DNA of 64,000 nucleotides from a virus (lineage: Duplodnaviria > Caudoviricetes). The translations under genes and the position numbers were made by a program. Below the pieces are notes generated by a model that saw only the letters and a program-made list of their open reading frames with translations, was not told where the DNA came from and searched no databases. Of this stretch, positions 1 to 63,386 are shown piece by piece (the stretch's first letter is position 1; the number at the start of each line of letters is the position of its first letter). Where the stretch lies: the IMG/VR virus record IMGVR_UViG_3300037067_012588. One strand, written 5' to 3'.

Positions 1-986
1 AAACGGATAACAGCGGCAGGTTCTGGAAGCCAACCAGAGACACCAAGATTGTCCCGCTCAAGCGATTGCCTGATTTCTGCTCCTGCCCCAACAGATACGG
101 ACTTCACCGAACGAGTAATACCTTTCGAGCCATACGACTCAAGGCTTCTCCTGATACCCTTTGGACCAACAGAACCAACTGGACCCTCAACACCCTTTGG
201 ACCAACAGGACAACCCTTAAAGCCCTGAGTTTCAACAGACGAACCATCACTCATGTCCAGTGAATCCACCGAGCAACCAAATTCGCCATCGTCAACGTTC
301 GAGCAATAGGTCGCATGAGAACCATATGTCTGATGTGTCCACTCCATCACGGTCGAACGCATAATCGACTGCGGAGCAATCCTTGGGTTTTTCGGACGAA
401 AGAACCCGAACCCAAACGCAGGAACTGTGTTCTCTTTCCCGATAACGTGACTCGCAATATCACGACTCTCATCCTCAGAAAAGAAGAACTGCCGAACCTT
501 GCCATCTGGCTGACGGAAGCCATCCCACCAAAGAGTGTTTGGCGAGGAAACATAATTCTGGGCTGGCCATTCGTACCCACACTTCTGGCAAAAATTCGCA
601 TGACTGAACGGCTCATCATGAATCGGACAACGGTCAGAAAATTCCGACAACGTCAGCCCGTCCAACTTCAACCCAGAGATTGGGTTCATTCCCTTGACCG
701 AAGGAAGAACTGCCGTGTTCAGTCTGTCATTCATCGTCCAGTCAAACCACAAGCCCCACTCCGAGTCCACAGGGCAAACATACGTTCCAGCTTCACGACT
801 CCATGACGCTGGCGCACCCGGCAGCACAGCAATCGGATACACGGGTATAGACTCGCCAGCAGGAAGCCCATGAGGACTCCCGTTATCAACAAGCCTTGTA
901 GCCTTCTTCAATTCTGCCTTGAACCCAGCGTGTTCCATTCTGTAGATATGCCCATTCTTGGCAATCTCTCTCGCATAGAAACTCAT
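1..986 (-). CDS. Conserved hypothetical protein, 3'-partial (runs off the left edge; absent from the ORF track)
   Basis: Manual translation from ATG at 986 (RBS AAGGAGG) is open to position 1: MSFYAREIAKNGHIYRMEHAG...QNYVSSPNTLWWDGFRQPDGKVRQFFF...GPKGVEGPVGSVGPKG...SVGAGAEIRQSLERD. Confidence 0.85.
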   Translation of the reverse strand, partial: MSFYAREIAKNGHIYRMEHAGFKAELKKATRLVDNGSPHGLPAGESIPVYPIAVLPGAPASWSREAGTYVCPVDSEWGLWFDWTMNDRLNTAVLPSVKGMNPISGLKLDGLTLSEFSDRCPIHDEPFSHANFCQKCGYEWPAQNYVSSPNTLWWDGFRQPDGKVRQFFFSEDESRDIASHVIGKENTVPAFGFGFFRPKNPRIAPQSIMRSTVMEWTHQTYGSHATYCSNVDDGEFGCSVDSLDMSDGSSVETQGFKGCPVGPKGVEGPVGSVGPKGIRRSLESYGSKGITRSVKSVSVGAGAEIRQSLERDNLGVSGWLPEPAAVIR

Positions 987-1048
987 ATTTTTCCTCCTTT
1001 TTCGAAAATAGCTGCTGGGCAAAAATGAACCCAGCAGCCGTGAGTGGT

Positions 1049-2098
1049 CTAGAACCTCGGCTTTGTCCGAACATTGAACGGGTCAGAAACATGACTCGCT
1101 TCAGAAGAAGCCGTCCTCGAACGCAACGATGGAAGTTTGTCCTCCTCGCAACGCTCACGGAAAACGGCTGCAACATTCGGATAGTCAAGTTCGAGTGCGT
1201 TCATGTCATCGGAAGAACAAGAACGAGCATCGGCAATCAACTGCCTCAACGACGGACGTTCCTTCGGGCACTGACCAAGCTCGACAATCAACCGAACGAA
1301 CTGGCAAGCCTTATAGTCAACCCCTTCCCACGAATGACCACACTCATCACAGTACCCATCAAGGAGGAGAACACCTTTGTGAACAGGGCACTCGTAAAAG
1401 ACCTGTGACGGGAACACACCAGCAACAAACAGCCGATACAGTGCATCACTCACCTTGTAATGAATAGGCATTTCCCGCTTACGGGATTCCTTCAACATAC
1501 GCAGTGTGATTTCCTGATCGATCTTGCCATCACGCTCGCTTGAAAAAGCGACAAACGGACGACCCTTGGAACGACGCAAGAGTTCCTCGACAACCTCTGA
1601 CGAACTCTCAGGACTGTAGCGATTGAGAAGCTCAGCATCAGTCAACTGTCCAATCGGCTTCAAGGACGAAAAAACAACATCATCCAAAAGCGAAGCCTTC
1701 TTGTTCTCGGCATCCACGGCAGCCTTAAGGTCTTCCTTGTCCACTTCCTTGCCGTCCAACACATCTTCAAGAACACTGTCAGACTCACGACGTTTCAGGA
1801 TTGACCAAATCTTCTTGAAACGAAGAAGCGGCAAACGAGGCTCTTCTGACTCGCAAAACACCAAACGCCCATCCTCTTCCTTGAAGAGGTCGGACATCAG
1901 CATATCATACGAGTCCTGATCGTTGTAGATTCCGATGTAAGAGAGACGACTCCAAATGAGATTTTCAGCCGCAATCTCAAAGGAAATCTTTTCATCAGAA
2001 CCAGAGACACAAGTGGAGAGACCGATATTGGGGATACCAACGATGACTGTTGCAGCTTCGGAGACTTTAACCACGAGGGGAACGCAGGTAGGATTCAT
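1049..2098 (-). CDS. Hypothetical protein with a putative zinc finger (CPVH...CDEC)
   Basis: Long ORF; start moved to MNPTCV, which follows the RBS AGAAGGAG. Confidence 0.75.
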   Translation of the reverse strand: MNPTCVPLVVKVSEAATVIVGIPNIGLSTCVSGSDEKISFEIAAENLIWSRLSYIGIYNDQDSYDMLMSDLFKEEDGRLVFCESEEPRLPLLRFKKIWSILKRRESDSVLEDVLDGKEVDKEDLKAAVDAENKKASLLDDVVFSSLKPIGQLTDAELLNRYSPESSSEVVEELLRRSKGRPFVAFSSERDGKIDQEITLRMLKESRKREMPIHYKVSDALYRLFVAGVFPSQVFYECPVHKGVLLLDGYCDECGHSWEGVDYKACQFVRLIVELGQCPKERPSLRQLIADARSCSSDDMNALELDYPNVAAVFRERCEEDKLPSLRSRTASSEASHVSDPFNVRTKPRF

Positions 2099-2117
2099 TT
2101 TGATACTCCTTCTCTTT

Positions 2118-2269
2118 GACAGGTTATACTCAAACGAGTTTACCCTATCCGTTCGACAACTTACACGCATGGGACACCCCATGTACGCTTACGCTGTCAT
2201 TGCCACATTGACTCGGTTGTGGCCACGCCGCTCGCTCTGAGATTCTGTCCTCAGAAAACTTCATCGAAC
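2118..2269 (-). ncRNA. Structured 5' leader or cis-regulatory RNA candidate
   Basis: Closing stem GTTCGATGA/TTGTCGAAC encloses three hairpins (TCTGAG/CTCAGA, GCCACA/TGTGGC, CATGGG/CCCATG); a further hairpin GATAGG/CCTGTC abuts the RBS. Confidence 0.5.
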
Positions 2270-2329
2270 ACTACATAATAATTCCTCCAAAAATGTTCAC
2301 TCACGTCAATGAGAAATTTAAGAACACTT

Positions 2330-2359
2330 ACTATACAGCCAACAAACAAAAAATGTCAA
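2330..2359 (-). promoter_or_regulatory. Sigma70-type promoter
   Basis: TTGACA-N18-TATAGT in an intergenic gap. Confidence 0.7.
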
Positions 2360-2368
2360 CAAAAATCT

Positions 2369-2617
2369 CTAGGAATTCTCTTCCTGTTCTGTTTGGTAAA
2401 TCGCCCCACATGAACAAGTCACAGTCTCTGGTTCCATAACCCAATCGCCATGATTGAATTCTTCAGGGATTGACTCACCTGGAATCAAACCAATCATCTC
2501 ACGAATTTCATCATCAGTCATGTTTGCTTTCAATGACCTTTCAAAAAAACGCTTCCCACACTTTGGACATCTCCATGTAAACGCTGTCTCCAATCGCACG
2601 GTTCCTTGGATATCCAT
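2369..2617 (-). CDS. Small zinc-ribbon protein
   Basis: CPKC...CSC motifs; directly downstream of clpP. Confidence 0.7.
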   Translation of the reverse strand: MDIQGTVRLETAFTWRCPKCGKRFFERSLKANMTDDEIREMIGLIPGESIPEEFNHGDWVMEPETVTCSCGAIYQTEQEENS

Positions 2618-2618
2618 A

Positions 2619-3287
2619 TCAATTCCTTTTTTGCTTTGAATATAAATCATTCCACGAAGTCAAAATACCATCAGCAAAACCCCATTCAACAGCTTCCTCT
2701 GCAGAAAGGTAAACATCGCCCTTCTTATCCATCAATGCCTCAAGTTCTTGTCTTACCTCTTTTGCACTTTTCCCTGAAAAACGTTTTGACCCAACACAAC
2801 TTTCAACATAAATATCAAGCATCGTTTCATCAGACCTCTTCGAAAAATTGACAATGCTGTGAACCGTATGCGCCTCCCCGCCAACATCAAGCGTCCCCCA
2901 ATGAATCATGAAATATGAATTCGGGAGCATCAATCTCTTATCACCAGCTTGAAGAATCAAACTCGACATACTTCTCGCATGAGTATATGATACAATCGTC
3001 ACGGGATATGGCATCATTTTTATCGTGTCGTAAATCGACATACCCTCTTCCCAAACTCCACCACAAGTATGAAGATGAATAAGAACAGGTTTCTTTGCTG
3101 ATTCATGCCGAAGCATATGAAGATTCTTGATAACCTTGTTCGCCATGACATATTCTACGCCAGGTTCCTCGCCAACCTCTATCCCATTCAGTCGCTCAAC
3201 TCCATGAATCCAAACTTCTCGACTATCAAGATTGACCCAATACTCATGAATACTCTGGAGGTCAAATTCCGACATTTTTCCTGTCAT
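2619..3287 (-). CDS. clpP: ClpP-like ATP-dependent protease proteolytic subunit
   Basis: HTCGG...GMSIYDTIK, ARSMSS (catalytic Ser), FMIH (catalytic His), YLSAEEAVEWGFAD. Confidence 0.9.
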   Translation of the reverse strand: MTGKMSEFDLQSIHEYWVNLDSREVWIHGVERLNGIEVGEEPGVEYVMANKVIKNLHMLRHESAKKPVLIHLHTCGGVWEEGMSIYDTIKMMPYPVTIVSYTHARSMSSLILQAGDKRLMLPNSYFMIHWGTLDVGGEAHTVHSIVNFSKRSDETMLDIYVESCVGSKRFSGKSAKEVRQELEALMDKKGDVYLSAEEAVEWGFADGILTSWNDLYSKQKRN

Positions 3288-3389: not shown

Positions 3390-5111
3390 TTAGAAGTTAC
3401 TGCGGATATAATCCATCGGAGGAACATCCTCGCCGCCAACACCCTCAGCCTTGAGCATCATCGCCAACACCGACTCATTGAAACCACCGAGAAGGTTGAG
3501 GCGGTTGTCCTTCTCGCAGAACGGGGTGTCGCCGTAACCCATCACGTTGATGCTGTGCAGCCACGTCTCCTTTGCACCCTCAATCCGCTTGAACTTCTTC
3601 CACTCATCGGCGCAGTTCTCGCTGCCCCAGCCGCTGTTCCAAGCCTGACCATCGCTCAGAATAATCAAGCGGTCGGGAACGTTCTTCTCCGAAATGAGCT
3701 TCTGGATAACCTTGTGCGTGTTCGTTGCACCACCATGATTGCCAACGTTCTTGGCGATGTTCATCATGGTCATGTGCTTCGTGATGTTGACCACACGAAC
3801 ATCATTGCTGAATGCGTAAAACTCAACCTCATCACCACGCCGAGCACAAATCGCACCGAGAGCACAAGCCGCATTGAACGCTGACAAAGAGGACATCTGA
3901 GAAATTGGCGTAGACATTGATCCAGAGTCATCAACCGCAACAATCGTGTGACCAGGCATCTTCGGGCAATTCTCGATAGCCGTCTCCGTCGCATTCTCAA
4001 CAGCCTCAAGCAACTTGGAAATATCAACACCACCTCCAAGCTTCGTCAGCTCGTTGTAAGCCGCAAGGTAACGGAACGGAAGCTGCTTGGACTTCCGAAC
4101 CTCATCGGCATTGGACAACTTCTCATACACCTTCTTGATAGTGTCCTTGCCAACACCAGCCTGAACAAGGTTCCGAAGATTGCGAAGCATTGCCATGTAG
4201 CCAACAAGGTCCTCGTCAATCAGGAACTCCCACACAGCCTTCTTGCCAGTCTCGCTCTTGCCAAACTGCGACAAGAGAACCTCCCAGTTGACGCTGGACT
4301 CCTTCGCCAACACACGAGCCTTGTCATCGAACGTATCCATCTTCGCCAGCATAGAACGCTTCATGGCAACAGGAGTCTCAGCACAAACAACGCCCGTCTT
4401 GAAATACGCCGACAAAGCGTTCGACATCGGCCAGCCCTTCTCACGAGGCAACCAACCCAGCACGTTGCCCCATGTCGGGAAGTCCTTGCCGTCATACTTC
4501 ATCAACGCAGCCTCGCCAATCTGCGACAAACGATTCGACAAACCAGTTGCAAGAGCATTCGACAGACACTTCATGCCGAACAGGTAACGATGCAACATCA
4601 AGCACGTCTTGATCTCGTCAGGACGCTTCACGATGAGGGGAACGTACTTCTTGACATACGGCTTCGTTGCCTCGATACGAGAAGCCAGCACGAGGAAAAC
4701 CTGCGGAGTCAAACGGATATTGCCCTCATTCCGCAGCCAGTTGGCAAGAGCGAGCAGGTCACGAGGATTCTTGCCCTGCGCAACATCGACAGCGGTGGCG
4801 ATAATCTCCTTCGCCACATCATCCAGCTCATCACAGTTGGCGAACTTCGCAGCCTTCGCCTCGTTCAGACGCAGACGCTCAGCGAGCTTTCCGAACTTGC
4901 CAGAAGCAAGACGGGTCGGGCGACAGCTATCGCCATTGTAATAGCGAGGCTCGGCGAAAAACGAACCACCCGTCATGGTCAGCAACTTAACCGCAGGGTC
5001 GGAAATGTCAAACGCAACACCCCCTGCACGGTTGACAGTCGCATCCTTGCTCTCAGACGGCTTGGAAGTCCGAACGAATGAAGCCTTCATCTTGTTGCTC
5101 ATAGTACCCAT
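3390..5111 (-). CDS. rsr: Ro60/Rsr-like TROVE-domain RNA-binding protein with C-terminal vWA domain
   Basis: NRAGGVAF, LRNEGNIR, YMAMLRNLRN, KSKQLPFRYLAAY, vWA MIDAS DDSGSM, GGATN, LIILSDGQ; start follows RBS GAGGAGG. Confidence 0.93.
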   Translation of the reverse strand: MGTMSNKMKASFVRTSKPSESKDATVNRAGGVAFDISDPAVKLLTMTGGSFFAEPRYYNGDSCRPTRLASGKFGKLAERLRLNEAKAAKFANCDELDDVAKEIIATAVDVAQGKNPRDLLALANWLRNEGNIRLTPQVFLVLASRIEATKPYVKKYVPLIVKRPDEIKTCLMLHRYLFGMKCLSNALATGLSNRLSQIGEAALMKYDGKDFPTWGNVLGWLPREKGWPMSNALSAYFKTGVVCAETPVAMKRSMLAKMDTFDDKARVLAKESSVNWEVLLSQFGKSETGKKAVWEFLIDEDLVGYMAMLRNLRNLVQAGVGKDTIKKVYEKLSNADEVRKSKQLPFRYLAAYNELTKLGGGVDISKLLEAVENATETAIENCPKMPGHTIVAVDDSGSMSTPISQMSSLSAFNAACALGAICARRGDEVEFYAFSNDVRVVNITKHMTMMNIAKNVGNHGGATNTHKVIQKLISEKNVPDRLIILSDGQAWNSGWGSENCADEWKKFKRIEGAKETWLHSINVMGYGDTPFCEKDNRLNLLGGFNESVLAMMLKAEGVGGEDVPPMDYIRSNF

Positions 5112-5133
5112 AGCTTTTACCTCCTCATTTTGT

Positions 5134-5199
5134 CGCACCGTTTTAGTGCGGAAGTGCGGAGAGACATTCCCCGCCAAAGACTCTCCAACACGGAGAGCC
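5134..5199 (-). promoter_or_regulatory. Three consecutive hairpins in the rsr 5' leader
   Basis: GGCTCTCC/GGAGAGTC, GCGGGGA/TCTCCGC, CGCACT/GGTGCG immediately before the RBS. Confidence 0.45.
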
Positions 5200-6185: not shown

Positions 6186-6274
6186 TGGTAGCGGGGGCAG
6201 GGTTCGAACCTGCGCAAGCCTTATTAGGGTCTCCAGCTTATGAGGCTGACGAGTTACCACTTCTCCACCCCGCA
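6186..6274 (-). tRNA. tRNA-Met(CAT), initiator-like acceptor stem, long variable arm
   Basis: TGCGGGG...CCCCGCT-A-CCA, anticodon loop CTCATAA, T arm GCAGG-TTCGAAC-CCTGC, encoded CCA. Confidence 0.9.
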
Positions 6275-6421: not shown

Positions 6422-6551
6422 CGACGCCAAAATTCGGCAAGGGCTATGTACTGCGGAATCGAACCGCTCCTCTGGGTTTAACGCCCAGCGTGCGCCATCA
6501 CACTCAGTCCTCAATCATGGTGGGGAAGTAACCCATGCCTGAAGAGCGTCG
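6422..6551 (-). ncRNA. Y-RNA-like unit 3, enclosing a tRNA-like domain
   Basis: Stems CGACGCT/GGCGTCG and GGCATGGG/CCCTTGCC, motif GGGTTACTTC, internal cloverleaf with a GGTTCGATTCC T loop; near rsr. Confidence 0.75.
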
Positions 6552-6562
6552 TAAAATAATAC

Positions 6563-6623
6563 TTCCGCCAAAAGGCGTGACAGGACTTTTTTCATAGAAG
6601 TAACCCATCACTGAAGAGCGGAA
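6563..6623 (-). ncRNA. Y-RNA-like unit 2 (minimal, stem only)
   Basis: Stems TTCCGCT/GGCGGAA and GTGATGGG/CCTGTCAC, motif GGGTTACTTC. Confidence 0.7.
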
Positions 6624-6632
6624 AAAGAACAC

Positions 6633-6926
6633 ACTCGATACCAATATGTTCTGACTAAGGCAACCGAACCCACAAGCCCATTCTGTTTGGGCGGCCGGTC
6701 GGGACCCTTTCGTCCCATGTCATTGAGCCTTTCCTCAAAGTCAACTGGACTTATCTCTTCCCAGCGGTCAGGGCTACTCCCAAGCCCATCAGCATGTCTT
6801 CTTTTTTTCCATGCAGTCACAGCTCTTTTGTATCACGATAAACCATCCATCGAACTGTCATAGCGGCTCACCGTATATCTTGTCTGAGTCTAGTAAGAAG
6901 TATCCCTAGTCACAAGCGTACCGAGC
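6633..6926 (-). ncRNA. Y-RNA-like unit 1 (about 290 nt, multi-hairpin inner domain)
   Basis: Stems CTCGGTAC/GTATCGAG and GACTAGGG/CCTTAGTC, motif GGGATACTTC, at least six internal hairpins. Confidence 0.7.
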
Positions 6927-22790: not shown

Positions 22791-22826
22791 GAAGAACATC
22801 GTCCAAGCGTGAAAATTCTTGGAATT
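22791..22826 (-). promoter_or_regulatory. Repeated GACGATG promoter-like motif
   Basis: TTCCAAGAATTTTC-N-TTGGACGATGTTCT; core 22797-22803. Confidence 0.65.
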
Positions 22827-53912: not shown

Positions 53913-54890
53913 TCATCGTTCGACGACATATTTCTTTTCGACTTGGACACCAACATCTGGTCCACGCCAGTGCGGAGAACACCAAATAATCCTCCCAGCA
54001 AGCTTTCCCTTTGTGAAATGCTTGAAATGACCAACAACACGAAAACGAACGGTCATCTTCCGACCACAAGGTTCGGATTCATCATAAACAACCCTTGTCT
54101 TGGTCATCTTCACAATGTTTGCAACACGAAATCCCGACCTAACAACTTCAGGAGACTTCTTAGAAGGCTTTTCTCGGACAACACGCTCAACAATACTCGA
54201 AGGAGAAGTAATGAAAAAAACCAGCTTCAATATTTGAAGCAACGACTTACTTACAGTCTTTTTATCAAAATCATCCTTTGGACACATTCCATGTATGTCC
54301 TCTTCCGAAAAAACATAATCATCCTTCGGATGAATAAACGCCCAATTTGACTTCATTGTCTGACTATTGTAACATACAACAATCCATGTTAGTTCGTTAT
54401 CAAAGGTTTTTTCCTCAAGAAGCGATCTTGGATCATTTAGTTCATACTTCGATATTCCATACTCAACAGACCTAAAACACGCAACATCCCATGTATCGCC
54501 AGACCCATCTGGGAACTCAGTTAACTCTGGAATCTCTATGATGATTTCAGGAAAAGGAAGCCTGACAGCATTAAACGGAACCGAGCGTATATCGGAATCA
54601 AGAATATCTTTCACCAACTCCTTGTCTTCGAAAATAAACGGAACAGTGACACCTTCGACAATAGATGCAGCAGTGGTCATCAAAATCGGACTATCATCGG
54701 GAAGCTTTCCTTGCTTTCTCAAAACCAATTCAGCAGCCTTCCAAACAATAATCGGGGAAGCTGAATCGAAACTAACATCTAAAACTGAAGCATCAAGCAC
54801 ATTACTCTTTTTGACATAATCACGAAAGCCTTCAACAAGTTTCCTGAAGGCATTTCGGATTCTGTCAATCTTGTGTATTTTTGTCTTCAT
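53913..54890 (-). CDS. Conserved phage hypothetical protein
   Basis: C-terminal VVGHFKH...WCSPHWRG motif. Confidence 0.7.
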   Translation of the reverse strand: MKTKIHKIDRIRNAFRKLVEGFRDYVKKSNVLDASVLDVSFDSASPIIVWKAAELVLRKQGKLPDDSPILMTTAASIVEGVTVPFIFEDKELVKDILDSDIRSVPFNAVRLPFPEIIIEIPELTEFPDGSGDTWDVACFRSVEYGISKYELNDPRSLLEEKTFDNELTWIVVCYNSQTMKSNWAFIHPKDDYVFSEEDIHGMCPKDDFDKKTVSKSLLQILKLVFFITSPSSIVERVVREKPSKKSPEVVRSGFRVANIVKMTKTRVVYDESEPCGRKMTVRFRVVGHFKHFTKGKLAGRIIWCSPHWRGPDVGVQVEKKYVVER

Positions 54891-56203
54891 TCTCCGCCAG
54901 CCTTGACATTGTAGAAAGGCTTGACACGGAACAAAATCGTCGCAGTCGGTGCAATGGCAGCCTCAATCATCGCAGCGTCCTTGTAAGCCATAGGCGACTC
55001 ATCAATGGTATCCTTGCTGACAGAGGTCGTGAAGATTCCCTCCATCGACTTCTGATAGTCAACCAAATCAATCGAAGCCTTTGCCTGTGACCGTGACAAC
55101 ACTCGCCCAGCACCATGAGGAGCGGAGAAGTTCCAATCGGCATTCGACTTGCCATCACAAATCAAAAGACCATCCCGCATGTTGAAGGGGATAATCATCC
55201 GCTCACCAACATACGACCGAATCGCTCCCTTGCGGATAATCCCATCCTCGAAGGAAATGAAGTTGTGAACACACTCGATTCGGTCATACTCAGTAACATC
55301 ACCAACAACCGAACGAATGGAAGACAAGACCTCCTCAGCGATAACCATACGGTTCATCGCAGCATAGCCCTGAGCAAGGAACATCGCCTTCAAATACAGC
55401 TCCATGTTCGAACCAGAAACGAACGACGAAGACTTGGAATCGAAGTCGAGCTTCGCATCTTCCTGCTTCTTCGTAATCAACTTGCTGATGTCCGACTTAG
55501 CAATCTCGCCTCGCCCAGCCATATCCCGAACCTTCTTGGTATACTCCTGCAAGTCAGGGATTTCCTTCACAGTCGCCTGAGCAATACCATCGAAATGCTC
55601 GCAGACACGCTTTCCGAAGTTCCGTGAACCAGTGTGAATCGTAACCCACGAATAAGCGTTCTCGTCAACACCCATTTCGATGAAGTGGTTTCCACCACCA
55701 AGCGTCCCGATGGAAATCCAGAAGCGACTGACGTCCATACCGATACTACGAACGAAATCCTCGATATCGGAAACGGAAACCGAACGGAAGCTCGCAATCA
55801 CGGAAGACGAAGACTTATGCGCTTCCTTACGGAGAAAGTCAACAAGACGCTCCTTGATGCCCTTGGACTCCTTGCTCCGGGCAGTCATACCCATAGGAAC
55901 ATGATGGCGAATCAAGACATCAATCTTCTTCAGCTCATCTTCCCAAGGACGAACATTCACACCCACAGAAAGCATTCCGCATCCGATGTCCACTCCGACC
56001 CAGTTCGGCACGACCTTATCACCAGCCTTCATGGTGAATCCAATAGGAACACCTTTTCCGGCATGAGAATCTGGCATCATAACAATAGTTTTGCCAATTG
56101 TTGCAGGATGATTTGCAATGTTAAACACTTGAGACATAGTTTCCTTTTCAAAACAATCAAGCGTCAACAACGCTTCAGAATATTTTCCTTTGATTTTATA
56201 CAT
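54887..56203 (-). CDS. rtcB: RNA ligase RtcB
   Basis: MPDSHAG, VGVDIGCG, GTLGGGNHFIE, HTGSR, HNF, RKGAI, SAPHGAGR, DESPMAYK. Confidence 0.96.
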   Translation of the reverse strand: MYKIKGKYSEALLTLDCFEKETMSQVFNIANHPATIGKTIVMMPDSHAGKGVPIGFTMKAGDKVVPNWVGVDIGCGMLSVGVNVRPWEDELKKIDVLIRHHVPMGMTARSKESKGIKERLVDFLRKEAHKSSSSVIASFRSVSVSDIEDFVRSIGMDVSRFWISIGTLGGGNHFIEMGVDENAYSWVTIHTGSRNFGKRVCEHFDGIAQATVKEIPDLQEYTKKVRDMAGRGEIAKSDISKLITKKQEDAKLDFDSKSSSFVSGSNMELYLKAMFLAQGYAAMNRMVIAEEVLSSIRSVVGDVTEYDRIECVHNFISFEDGIIRKGAIRSYVGERMIIPFNMRDGLLICDGKSNADWNFSAPHGAGRVLSRSQAKASIDLVDYQKSMEGIFTTSVSKDTIDESPMAYKDAAMIEAAIAPTATILFRVKPFYNVKAGGE

Positions 56204-56390
56204 CGATTCTCTTTCTAATCTCGTTTCTGATAAGCTCCATAGCGGAAGCCTTATCTGACTTGATTTCTTTTTCCCATATGACAAAAAAACCGTACCCCAT
56301 CGATTCAATCAACTGGCTTCTTTTCTTATCTTTTTCCCATTTTTCCGAAAACAGCCCCATCTTTTTATCCTTGATAAATAATCCCTCCAA
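56196..56390 (-). pseudogene. Fragment resembling the C-terminus of a Vsr/DUF559-like endonuclease
   Basis: KDKKR...GYGFFVIWEKEIK; N-terminal catalytic part missing. Confidence 0.4.
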
Positions 56391-59209: not shown

Positions 59210-60493
59210 TTACTTTCCACGCTCTTCGGAAGCCGCCACGGGCTTCCCTTCCATTGTCATATCAAGGGAGAGGTCTTTTGCTGCCTTGATTGTCATCAGA
59301 CTCATAAAGTCACTCGCAGAACTATCTTGACCACCCTGCTTGTCGCCCATAACCACAGAGGGAACCAGACGCTTCGAAAACGCATCAGCCCAAACTTTCT
59401 GGGCATCAGACCAAGCCGCAAGCTTCTTCTCAAGAGCTCCATCGGCGGCCATAACGAGCTTCTTCCGAGTTGCTTCTCCTTCACCGAGCAGAATATCCCG
59501 CTGTTTGTTCATCTCAGCAGCATCACGCTCAAGGGCTGCAACTGCCTTTTGCTGCTCGCCCTTTGTAATTGCGACTTCCTTCTCCTTCAAGGCATCGGTG
59601 ACAGCCTTGACTTTTTCCTGTTCTTTTTCATACTTGGAAGCCATAACTGCAGCTTTACCTTCAGCCTCAATTCGCAAACTGTCCTGTTCCGATTTCTTCG
59701 TCTTGGCAATGGCAGTAACAACTTCCATAGCCGCCTTCTGCTGTTCATCAATCTGCTTCTGCACAGCATCGCTATAGATAAACTTCTTCACTTCGAAGTT
59801 GGAAAGAACAATCCCTGTTCCTTCAAACACGTTGCTTTGAGGTTGACGAATCATCCGACCTTCTTTGTCCTTCGCAGGACGCTTCAGTGTACGGGTTACA
59901 ACTTGACCAGTAAGGGGGTCACTGATTTCAACCTGTTCATCAACAACTTCATACAATCCGTGTTGAATCTGGTCACGGGCAATAACGATGAAATCGTTTC
60001 GGCGCTCGCAATAAGACTCACGAGCCGACATCAAATTGGCAGTTAAAATGAGAGCGTTACGCAAGCAAGGTTTTACCAGTTTTTCCTCAACATCGAGATG
60101 AGAACGCAAGCCAAGTTGGGTAATCAAATTCAAGGCCTGATCAGGAGACTTTGGCATTTCAACACGGCAGGTTCCACTAATTCTACACGTCGAACCATCG
60201 TTGAAAGTTACCTCAATCGAAGCATCTCCCGTATCATCAGGACCATCAGCTCCTTCAGGGTCAGCAGTGAAATAGAAAGTCTCTGCACACGGCCACGTTG
60301 TAATAGAGCCAAAACATTGCGCCCACATGCCAGGAGTCATTTTGACATCCAACTGACCAGAAACTGGCCACTGGCGAACCTGATATGTGCCAGATTGCAC
60401 TGTCTCAACCATAGACGGCAAAATATAGGCACAAATCAAAAGAATAACTCCTGCAACAATACCCTTCAAAACAAGCTTTTCACGTTCATTCAT
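59210..60493 (-). CDS. SPFH/band 7 (flotillin/prohibitin-like) membrane protein
   Basis: N-terminal TM segment, SPFH-like core, Ala/Glu-rich coiled coil. Confidence 0.8.
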   Translation of the reverse strand: MNEREKLVLKGIVAGVILLICAYILPSMVETVQSGTYQVRQWPVSGQLDVKMTPGMWAQCFGSITTWPCAETFYFTADPEGADGPDDTGDASIEVTFNDGSTCRISGTCRVEMPKSPDQALNLITQLGLRSHLDVEEKLVKPCLRNALILTANLMSARESYCERRNDFIVIARDQIQHGLYEVVDEQVEISDPLTGQVVTRTLKRPAKDKEGRMIRQPQSNVFEGTGIVLSNFEVKKFIYSDAVQKQIDEQQKAAMEVVTAIAKTKKSEQDSLRIEAEGKAAVMASKYEKEQEKVKAVTDALKEKEVAITKGEQQKAVAALERDAAEMNKQRDILLGEGEATRKKLVMAADGALEKKLAAWSDAQKVWADAFSKRLVPSVVMGDKQGGQDSSASDFMSLMTIKAAKDLSLDMTMEGKPVAASEERGK

Positions 60494-61594: not shown

Positions 61595-61849
61595 TCAGAC
61601 AAACCTCCAGTATTCTGTTTTGCTACTTATCTCAGAAAGGTTTTCCTTAATGGCTCGAACAACAGCCTCTGTGTCTCCAAGACACAAAACACATGCTCGT
61701 CCTCCAAAAAAATACCAGTCGACACGCTGCTCTGAGATAGTACGCAGCTTTTCTACCCACTTTTCGATGTCGGACACTTCGATGTCTGCCAGCGTGAAAA
61801 CATGTTGCCCGTTGGCGAATACTTCTTCGTCACATTTTTCGATCATCAA
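61595..61849 (-). CDS. Hypothetical protein
   Basis: ORF overlapping the upstream stop codon. Confidence 0.65.
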   Translation of the reverse strand: MMIEKCDEEVFANGQHVFTLADIEVSDIEKWVEKLRTISEQRVDWYFFGGRACVLCLGDTEAVVRAIKENLSEISSKTEYWRFV

Positions 61850-63148: not shown

Positions 63149-63152
63149 AAAC

Positions 63153-63186
63153 AAAAAAACACAGCCCCATCTGGCCAGACGGGGCT
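63153..63186 (-). terminator. Intrinsic terminator of the permuted tRNA-like RNA
   Basis: AGCCCCGTCTGG/CCAGATGGGGCT stem, then GTGTTTTTTT. Confidence 0.75.
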
Positions 63187-63205
63187 AAGGCGCTACTTGG
63201 CTGCT

Positions 63206-63293
63206 GCACTGGCGTATGCTGTTCTAGCCACTTGAACTACACGCCCAATCGGGCGAGGAGGGACTCGAACCCCCAACCTGCACAGGCACTGGC
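63206..63293 (-). ncRNA. Circularly permuted tRNA-like RNA (YrlA-like topology)
   Basis: Order: TGTGC, AGGTT, T arm GGGGG-TTCGAGT-CCCTC, acceptor CTCGCCC-GATT-GGGCGTG, TA, D arm GTTC-AAGTGGCTA-GAAC, A, GCATA. Confidence 0.8.
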
Positions 63294-63349
63294 AACTAGG
63301 CATTGTGGTTTCCGGAAACCACATTTACCGTCTTCTTTCGCTTGCCTCA

Positions 63350-63386
63350 TAAGAACATCGTCCAAGGAAGAAAATTCTTGGAACTA
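63350..63386 (-). promoter_or_regulatory. Repeated GACGATG promoter-like motif
   Basis: TTCCAAGAATTTTC-N-TTGGACGATGTTCT; core 63356-63362. Confidence 0.7.

Follow-up and report, generated by a model that had tools for sequence, protein, structure and literature searches.

In YrlA RNAs, a Ro60-binding stem carries a tRNA-like effector domain, the acceptor stem of which is closed; the motif GNCGAAN0-1G, a putative Ro60 contact, is found near their 5' end, and nearly all of them are encoded less than 4 kb from rsr and on the same strand (PMC4201824). Most YrlAs have been likened to circularly permuted tRNAs in the paper on a crystal structure (10.1101/312249) and, as Burroughs and Aravind (2016) are cited there, YrlA occurs occasionally beside Band-7 of RtcB systems and a tRNA beside Rsr. 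A TROVE protein is present in a subset of jumbo phages, and its cellular counterparts work with a tRNA-like partner RNA (PMC7824862). The YrlA of Mycobacterium smegmatis, which has a 7-bp acceptor, is cleaved by RNase P and receives CCA. Here, we analyze an element of this kind in the IMG/VR virus record IMGVR_UViG_3300037067_012588 (Duplodnaviria; Caudoviricetes). The DNA analyzed is a 64-kb stretch, referred to as the window, of a 344,634-bp phage contig, and nearly all of its genes are on the minus strand. From its sequence, the element appears to be a new YrlA-type tRNA mimic that combines a faithful, rotated tRNA body with a new, invariant and symmetric handle and that is uncoupled from rsr. 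We favor, with a confidence somewhat better than even, the explanation that it is the gene of a structured noncoding RNA of ∼190 nt of the YrlA (bacterial/phage Y RNA) kind, and that this RNA acts as a scaffold in a phage RNA-repair set.

The center of the element, positions 63284-63215 on the minus strand, reads as the whole body of a class-I tRNA with its parts in rotated order, i.e., as anticodon-like stem, variable loop, T arm, closed acceptor-like stem, and D arm. It begins with the 3' strand of the anticodon stem, TGTGC (63284-63280), followed by the 5-nt variable loop AGGTT (63279-63275), a canonical T arm (63274-63258), and the 7-nt 3' strand of the acceptor, CTCGCCC (63257-63251). The loop GATT (GAUU in the RNA; 63250-63247) closes the acceptor and leads into its 5' strand, GGGCGTG (63246-63240), after which come TA (U8-A9), the D arm with G18G19 (63237-63221), A26, and the 5' strand of the anticodon stem, GCATA (63219-63215). 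The acceptor-like stem of the window copy contains one U·U mismatch. All nucleotides for the tertiary contacts of a tRNA can be read from the sequence, i.e., U8, A9, A14, A15:U48, G18G19, G45, G46, A9 with U12-A23, and the T-loop sequence UUCGA. Such a body would be L-shaped, with the acceptor end sealed by a tetraloop and the anticodon loop absent. An earlier, sequence-only reading of this DNA had proposed a circularly permuted tRNA mimic with the topology of YrlA; the anatomy that it gave is correct, and all of its statements on the sequence check out.

Two types of search recover this anatomy. First, an Infernal-type comparison with the Rfam YrlA model, which the sequence-only reading had itself proposed, matches positions 63285-63213 to model positions 20-89 of 114 with 41.9 bits (E 3.1e-7), a score under the Rfam cut-off; the match spans the tRNA-like module only, without the Ro-binding stem of the model. 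Second, in its native order the element is called by neither ARAGORN nor the Rfam tRNA model, while rotation in silico and insertion of a dummy 7-nt loop result in a tRNA call by ARAGORN for all three homologues described below (native order, none of three).

The element is conserved in relatives. Via the phosphatase gene upstream of it, we found it at the syntenic place in four metagenome contigs (L135-L138), which are mutually identical in the region and whose phosphatase is 58% identical to that of the window. A further copy, found by its flank pattern, is present in the 253-kb IMG/VR contig 3300029288_000063 (G001; 75% complete). The comparison set thus consists of three distinct sequences: the window, L135-L138, and G001. 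In addition, metagenome DNA contigs contain the same phage with an identical element. Altogether, the element is kept in at least three lineages of huge phages from groundwater and landfill metagenomes, with one copy per genome.

Comparison of the three sequences revealed compensatory changes in the stems and near invariance in the flanks. In the anticodon-like stem, three of five pairs are changed with pairing kept (UGUGC/GCAUA versus UAAGG/CCUUA), and pair 2 of the T stem is G·U, C-G, and U-A in the three homologues. The acceptor-like stem, which also covaries, differs in sequence among the homologues, has 7, 7, and 9 bp, and is closed by the loops GAUU, GCAA, and AGUA; it always has one or two pyrimidine-pyrimidine mismatches, and the 9-bp form (L136) has two. 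The nucleotides for the contacts U8-A14, R15-Y48, and G18G19 with the T loop and for the 9/45/46 triples are kept in all three. By contrast to the variable acceptor-like stem, the leader CGAAAGAAGACGG together with the 17 nt before and the 22 nt after the module has a single substitution in total, i.e., one change in 39 nt of flanks. Conservation in two independent relatives, accompanied by compensatory changes, makes the element more than a chance arrangement. As judged from these sequence comparisons, it is a conserved structured RNA under selection and not a decayed tRNA junction.

Broader searches returned the known copies. No similar DNA was found in GenBank phages, where only short tRNA-like matches were obtained. 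Scans of IMG/VR with the flank pattern yielded G001 as the sole member, the 24 other matches of one scan being coding-sequence noise, and a scan of genome contigs yielded no member. A scan of metagenomes with a T-loop/D-arm pattern found other YrlA-like modules and no member with the present handle; likewise, searches via a neighboring protein of 152 amino acids and via the Band-7 protein gave no further members. With a profile of the three sequences, nhmmer returned as full-length matches only the known copies from 1.44 Mb of fetched loci plus the window. The present handle is found only in the window and its two relatives. Within the whole 253-kb record of G001, no YrlA-like match scores higher than the element, and weaker matches lie in tRNA arrays at junctions of tandem tRNAs. 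A more distant relative, L171, in which the neighboring protein is 55% identical, has a dense tRNA array (300-3000, plus strand) at the place equivalent to that of the element, and in the vicinity of 960-1045 within this array lies a closed-acceptor junction of a T arm and a D arm; the array is consistent with tandem tRNA genes as the source of RNAs of this type. G001 also contains, at ∼15.8 kb (L176, 3828-3932, minus strand) and 1 kb downstream of the element, a match to the tRNA model (46 bits) in which 49 nt are inserted in the anticodon region; it is on the strand opposite to all neighboring genes, and no counterpart was seen in the window.

The claim of the sequence-only reading that the element is free-standing with its own promoter and terminator is borne out at the level of motifs. 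A promoter-like motif (TTCCAAGAATTTTCTTCC + TTGGACGATGTTCTT; 63351-63383, minus strand) that contains a recurrent 15-mer lies directly 5' of the RNA. The 15-mer TTGGACGATGTTCTT, with TTTCCAgAAATTTC before it, has at least seven exact copies in the window, and at three mismatches or fewer there are 19 matches, while 3.2 are expected. Every copy is on the minus strand; those elsewhere in the window lie 25-45 nt before a ribosome-binding site and an ATG. The copy that immediately precedes the element has its end at 63351, and the copy after it (63127-63113) serves the gene that follows. On the 3' side, an 11-pair hairpin (63187-63162) and a T run form an intrinsic terminator (63152-63187, minus strand), the stem of which covaries in the homologous locus L157 with the central UGGCCA kept. 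Related promoter-like motifs and the terminator are at corresponding places in the homologues. As a motif argument, a promoter and a terminator of its own are well founded, and transcription would probably start just after the promoter-like motif and end at the intrinsic terminator. The promoter-like motif TTTCCAgAAATTTCtnccTTGGACGATGTTCTT is distributed over 22792-63365 of the window (minus strand) with exact cores at 22806, 24839, 26807, 30329, 63127, and 63365 and degenerate copies elsewhere; in appearance, this phage motif is unlike a sigma-70 promoter. In metagenome contigs, depth spikes ∼7-fold over a sister copy of the motif, indicating a multicopy sequence, and this extra depth is what is expected of a repeated promoter. 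The ATG at 63350 opens a short reading frame of 38 codons by hand count that is not conserved; L136 reads TTG AGG TAA.

Near its 5' end, the RNA is predicted to carry a leader with CGAAAGAAGACGG (63328-63340, minus strand), which is identical in all three homologues. Together with the two preceding bases (63342-63335), the leader reads A-N-CGAA-A-G (A[G/U]CGAAAG), which differs from the YrlA motif GNCGAAN0-1G at one position, although so short a match may be due to chance; it lies ∼10 nt from the likely 5' end, and its core is invariant. The leader is followed by hairpin 1 (63299-63329, minus strand), with a stem at 63323-63304, the loop CCGG, and a base closed by GGU/GCC. This stem covaries, with GUGG/CCAC in the window and CAGG/CCUG in L157 and a basal U·G changed to C-G, while the loop is invariant. 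The loop region UCCGGA (within 63304-63323; also in L136 and L157) is invariant and self-complementary. A stem closing leader on trailer, or an anti-terminator, in which AGACGG would pair with CCGUCU was considered and rejected, as it is not conserved in L157.

The flanks of the tRNA-like module each contain a copy of the 8-mer GCCAGTGC (63293-63286 and 63213-63206). In the 64-kb window, this 8-mer has three copies on both strands compared to 1.18 expected; two of the three flank the module, and neither of these two varies among the homologues. The handle's 5' strand, GCCTAGTTGCCAGTGCC (63285-63301, minus strand), includes the first copy and is invariant in the three homologues, and the 3' strand, CGCCAGTGCAGCAGCCAAGTAG (63193-63214, minus strand), includes the second copy and a 7-nt bulge, AGCCAAG. 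Of the 22 nt of the 3' strand, a single one differs among the homologues (U instead of A in L136), and it is within the predicted bulge. The two strands are thus under strong primary-sequence constraint, and we infer that they pair. Extension of the anticodon-like stem outward without gaps sets the two copies of the repeat exactly opposite each other, in the order G-C, C-G, then C·U, A·G, G·A, and U·C, then G-C and C-G. The resulting 4 × 4 internal loop is two-fold symmetric, with CAGU facing CAGU between G-C clamps. Outward of this loop follow GUUGC/GCAGC, the 7-nt bulge on the 3' strand, and CUA/UAG; inward, a C·C mismatch precedes the 5-bp anticodon-like stem. RNAalifold extends the anticodon-like stem in a closely similar manner, and in each of the three homologues the handle contributes −6.9 kcal/mol to the cloverleaf core. 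The flanks can therefore form a long, energetically favorable stem, which is invariant, and hence beyond covariation, and has no match in the stem of the YrlA model.

With this arrangement, the 8-nt direct repeat of the sequence-only reading is retained in fact and changed in meaning. Both copies are present and flank the module; however, the best interpretation is that they are opposing strands of a symmetric internal loop in the handle and not a scar of a duplication. A direct repeat appears in the linear sequence because the element is symmetric, so that both strands read alike. The UCCGGA loop of hairpin 1 and the symmetric handle also hint at dimer formation or at recognition by a dimer. 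An alternative pairing of CUAGUUG with CCAAGUAG was rejected in favor of GUUGC/GCAGC, since the substitution in L136 would break it. No complementary partner for either handle strand was found elsewhere in the window, and no second copy or other use of the handle was found in the window or in G001, in which the paired arrangement occurs once. Part of the 3' strand, GUGCAGCAGCC (63193-63210, minus strand), resembles the 530 loop of 16S rRNA, GUGCCAGCAGCC, read in the same direction and lacking one base, a likeness that by a rough estimate may be due to chance. The 530-loop sequence GUGCCAGCAGCC is universally conserved.

How does the element compare to the YrlA RNAs that bacteria and mycobacteriophages encode (Rfam RF02553; PMC4201824; 10.1101/312249)? 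In both, the T arm is 5' of the D arm, the acceptor stem is closed by a loop, and the set of nucleotides for tertiary contacts is complete. The anticodon stem of YrlA continues into a long stem made by the flanks, and the flanks of the element are predicted to extend its anticodon-like stem likewise; a short sequence containing CGAA, which may be due to chance, is near the likely 5' end of the element, and its genome encodes Ro60 and RtcB on the same strand. The element differs from YrlA in scoring under the Rfam cut-off, in lacking the V hairpin, and in having an extra 5' hairpin. Its handle has a predicted two-fold symmetric loop and is unrelated in sequence to the Ro-binding stem of the model, and it lies 54-58 kb from rsr instead of less than 4 kb and has its own promoter-like motif and terminator.

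A second comparison is with the RNAs encoded close to Ro60 in the same phages. In both the window phage and G001, arrays of RNAs just upstream of Ro have GGG(U/A)UACUUC in common (units at 6422-6926 in the window). These Y-like RNAs are in the same genomes and on the same strand as the element and are also modular, one of them with a tRNA-like insert; however, their handle motif is a different one, and the tRNA-like insert is in normal, unrotated order. As stated in the sequence-only reading, the element does not have their GGGTTACTTC stem and is far from rsr: the motif is absent, and the distance is ∼58 kb. We also collected closed-acceptor modules of the YrlA type from IMG/VR and metagenomes (L001-L134). 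Such modules are common in viral contigs and can be sorted by handle class: GGUUACUUC is often accompanied by Ro in the same locus, ACAGCAA is mostly inside tRNA arrays, and GGUUAUC is the third class. The Rfam scores of all these modules are under the cut-off. The mimics with the ACAGCAA handle resemble the element in that they are carried by phages, in that Rfam matches the module only, and in that most are not next to Ro, whereas they have the V hairpin and another handle motif on the 5' strand and are located in tRNA clusters instead of forming separate transcription units.

Downstream of the element, and on the same strand, the window encodes several proteins of RNA repair and quality control. 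A Band-7/SPFH gene (59210-60493, minus strand; Pfam Band_7, 26.9 bits) lies 2.7 kb downstream, the gene of an RtcB RNA ligase (54887-56308, minus strand; Pfam RtcB, E 2e-63; PHROG tRNA splicing ligase) 7 kb downstream, and the Ro60 gene (TROVE + vWA; 3390-5177, minus strand; Pfam TROVE, E 7e-23; vWA_Ro60, E 2e-11) 58 kb downstream; a CCA-adding enzyme with an HD domain is encoded at 10.7-9.1 kb (minus strand). In G001, with all features on the plus strand, the element is at 14.5-14.8 kb, Band-7 at ∼19.0-20.3 kb, RtcB at 22.7-23.9 kb, and Ro at ∼68.8-69.6 kb, i.e., 4.5 kb, 8 kb, and 54 kb downstream of the element, respectively. The Band-7 proteins of the two phages are 70% identical, and in both phages the order is element, Band-7, RtcB, and then Ro on one strand, with rsr ∼55 kb away. 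Six to eight unrelated small genes separate the element from Band-7, and more precede RtcB. As far as the scheme of Burroughs and Aravind (2016) is cited in 10.1101/312249, the locus shares with it that RtcB, Band-7, and a tRNA-like component are in one co-directional region and, loosely, the swapped arrangement, with a tRNA-Met-like gene by Ro and a YrlA-type module upstream of Band-7; it differs from the scheme as cited there in lacking tight operonic adjacency. The tRNA-Met(CAU)-like gene, which has a long extra arm, is just upstream of the Ro60 region (window 6186-6274, minus strand; L175 4731-4819, plus strand) and may be the tRNA beside Rsr of that scheme. The Band-7 protein is a member of a very widespread and tightly conserved family, for which bacteria and phages provide >600 homologues with ∼50% identity; one phage Band-7 context has a gene of the RNA-repair type RlaP 1 kb downstream. 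ARAGORN also calls a tRNA-Pro(UGG) at 61639-61712 (minus strand) inside an open reading frame of 84 amino acids (61595-61849); with no match to the Rfam tRNA model even at E up to 10, this call is probably a false positive.

Based on these findings, we suggest a working model for the RNA. It would consist of three parts, i.e., a short single-stranded 5' leader with the invariant CGAAAGAAGACGG followed by a small hairpin, a long irregular handle that is formed by the two invariant flanks and in which the GCCAGUGC copies face each other, and, borne by the handle, an entire L-shaped tRNA body that a tetraloop seals at the acceptor end and that has no anticodon loop. By analogy with Y RNAs, the handle and the leader may bind a phage protein in a sequence-specific manner, while the tRNA elbow would be presented to a factor that recognizes tRNAs. 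The RNA would in that way function as a scaffold or adaptor in a repair and quality-control set that comprises RtcB, Band-7, Ro60, and the CCA-adding enzyme.

Several observations weigh against this scaffold model. The YrlA score of 41.9 bits is below the Rfam gathering cut-off of 69, with the flanks contributing nothing to it, and the G001 copy is likewise under this cut-off at 39.8 bits. Minimum-free-energy folds favor other pairings over the handle by 5-7 kcal/mol, and all handle pairs are invariant and thereby beyond a covariation test. At 58 kb in the window and 54 kb in G001, rsr is much farther from the element than the 4 kb of canonical YrlA; the element also lacks the GGG(U/A)UACUUC / GGGUUACUUC motif of the Ro60-proximal RNAs, with no TACTTC anywhere in it. 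Among the collected closed-acceptor modules, 5 of the 9 with an upstream TACTTC motif have a Ro gene in their locus, compared to 6 of 43 for the rest, and TACTTC is thus plausible as the phage Ro handle. Its absence argues against the element as a mere fourth copy of the Ro-proximal kind, and because the handle is unlike that of these RNAs, its partner may be other than Ro60. Finally, the two phages are related and may simply be collinear in general, which would account for the shared gene order with Band-7 and RtcB, and three other contexts of Band-7 homologues have no RtcB within 6-8 kb. Since six to eight genes intervene and other Band-7 contexts lack RtcB, the linkage of the element to Band-7/RtcB is suggestive only. 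Two further proposals of the sequence-only reading, a fourth Ro-associated RNA and a decoy, are candidate readings.

As a decoy or sponge, the sealed, uncleavable body would titrate a host defense nuclease directed at tRNAs, or another tRNA-binding factor, with flanks that stabilize it or are removed. We consider this unlikely, although the set of tertiary interactions is complete, the anticodon loop is absent, and the phage invests in genes for tRNAs and RNA repair (RtcB, CCA-adding enzyme, tRNAs); conservation in the element is highest in the flanks, for which a pure elbow decoy would have no use, there is only a single copy per genome, and there is no known target. That the symmetric GCCAGUGC × GCCAGUGC helix is a processing substrate, cut by a dimeric endonuclease (RNase III-like or of the phage) to free a tRNA-like domain that is then possibly circularized by RtcB, is distinctly less probable. 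The same sequence on both strands of a helix of ∼20 bp with internal loops, and an RtcB gene 7-8 kb downstream in both phages, would be in line with such processing, while the helix contains no canonical bulge-helix-bulge and a tRNA splicing endonuclease was not found in the 75%-complete G001. The 5'-phosphate and 3'-hydroxyl ends left by RNase III are not known to be substrates of RtcB, which also counts against it. In its most specific form, which we hold to be a shade less probable again, the invariant GCCAGUGC × GCCAGUGC loop, located at the foot of the anticodon-like stem, would be the recognition and cleavage site of a dimeric enzyme and a phage analogue of the bulge-helix-bulge of archaea, and the excised domain would be sealed by RtcB into a circular RNA or be re-opened and CCA-tailed; if true, this would be the first maturation pathway of the permuted-tRNA type in a bacteriophage. 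Slightly lower still we place a cis-acting element of the upstream mRNA, i.e., a stabilizer or processing mark in a 3' untranslated region to which transcription would extend from the phosphatase gene. In line with read-through, the interval between the phosphatase stop codon (63399) and the element has no terminator, but a promoter-like motif separates the element from the upstream gene in all three homologues, and in G001 that gene is a different one.

The sequence-only reading had also proposed a permuted precursor circularized by RtcB, and this proposal is disfavored. A permuted pre-tRNA that becomes a decoding tRNA by circularization and subsequent opening of the acceptor stem would share its topology with the permuted tRNA genes of algae and archaea (Cyanidioschyzon merolae and some archaea, as cited in 10.1101/312249), in which the 3' half comes first, the acceptor is initially closed, and leader and trailer form the anticodon stem. 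M. smegmatis YrlA offers a precedent in its cleavage by RNase P and receipt of CCA, and the phage has both RtcB and a CCA-adding enzyme. However, compared to those genes as they are described there, the element has no bulge-helix-bulge, since the sequence cannot be arranged into a central helix of 4 bp with 3-nt bulges, and no possible 7-nt anticodon loop, joining at the repeats resulting in a 10-nt loop and not in one of the U33 type. Moreover, the acceptor is variable and mismatched (9 bp with two mismatches in L136, 7 bp with U·U elsewhere) and has no conserved discriminator, and the splicing endonuclease PF01974 is absent from the 75%-complete G001. We therefore regard a pre-tRNA as very improbable. 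Least credible of all is a functionless, decayed junction of two tandem tRNA genes. The sequence-only reading had named a degenerate junction in relatives as the finding that would overturn it, such junctions do yield sub-threshold YrlA matches, and the distant relative L171 has a tRNA array at the equivalent place. In the element itself, by contrast, there are no tRNA halves on either side, the flanks being a hairpin and a terminator, and the acceptor strands pair across a 4-nt loop; in the three lineages, compensatory changes in the stems and invariant flanks contradict decay.

Y RNAs and YrlA are known almost only as neighbors and partners of Ro60. The element described here is a clean natural variant in which the tRNA body is kept to the letter, the Ro-type handle has been swapped, and the gene is upstream of Band-7 and RtcB. 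With a core of ∼110 nt, it would also be a small and well-defined RNA for studies of binding and structure. Should the partner of the handle be a protein different from Ro60, tRNA mimics would constitute an adaptor module of general use in the RNA-repair or anti-defense machinery of phages.

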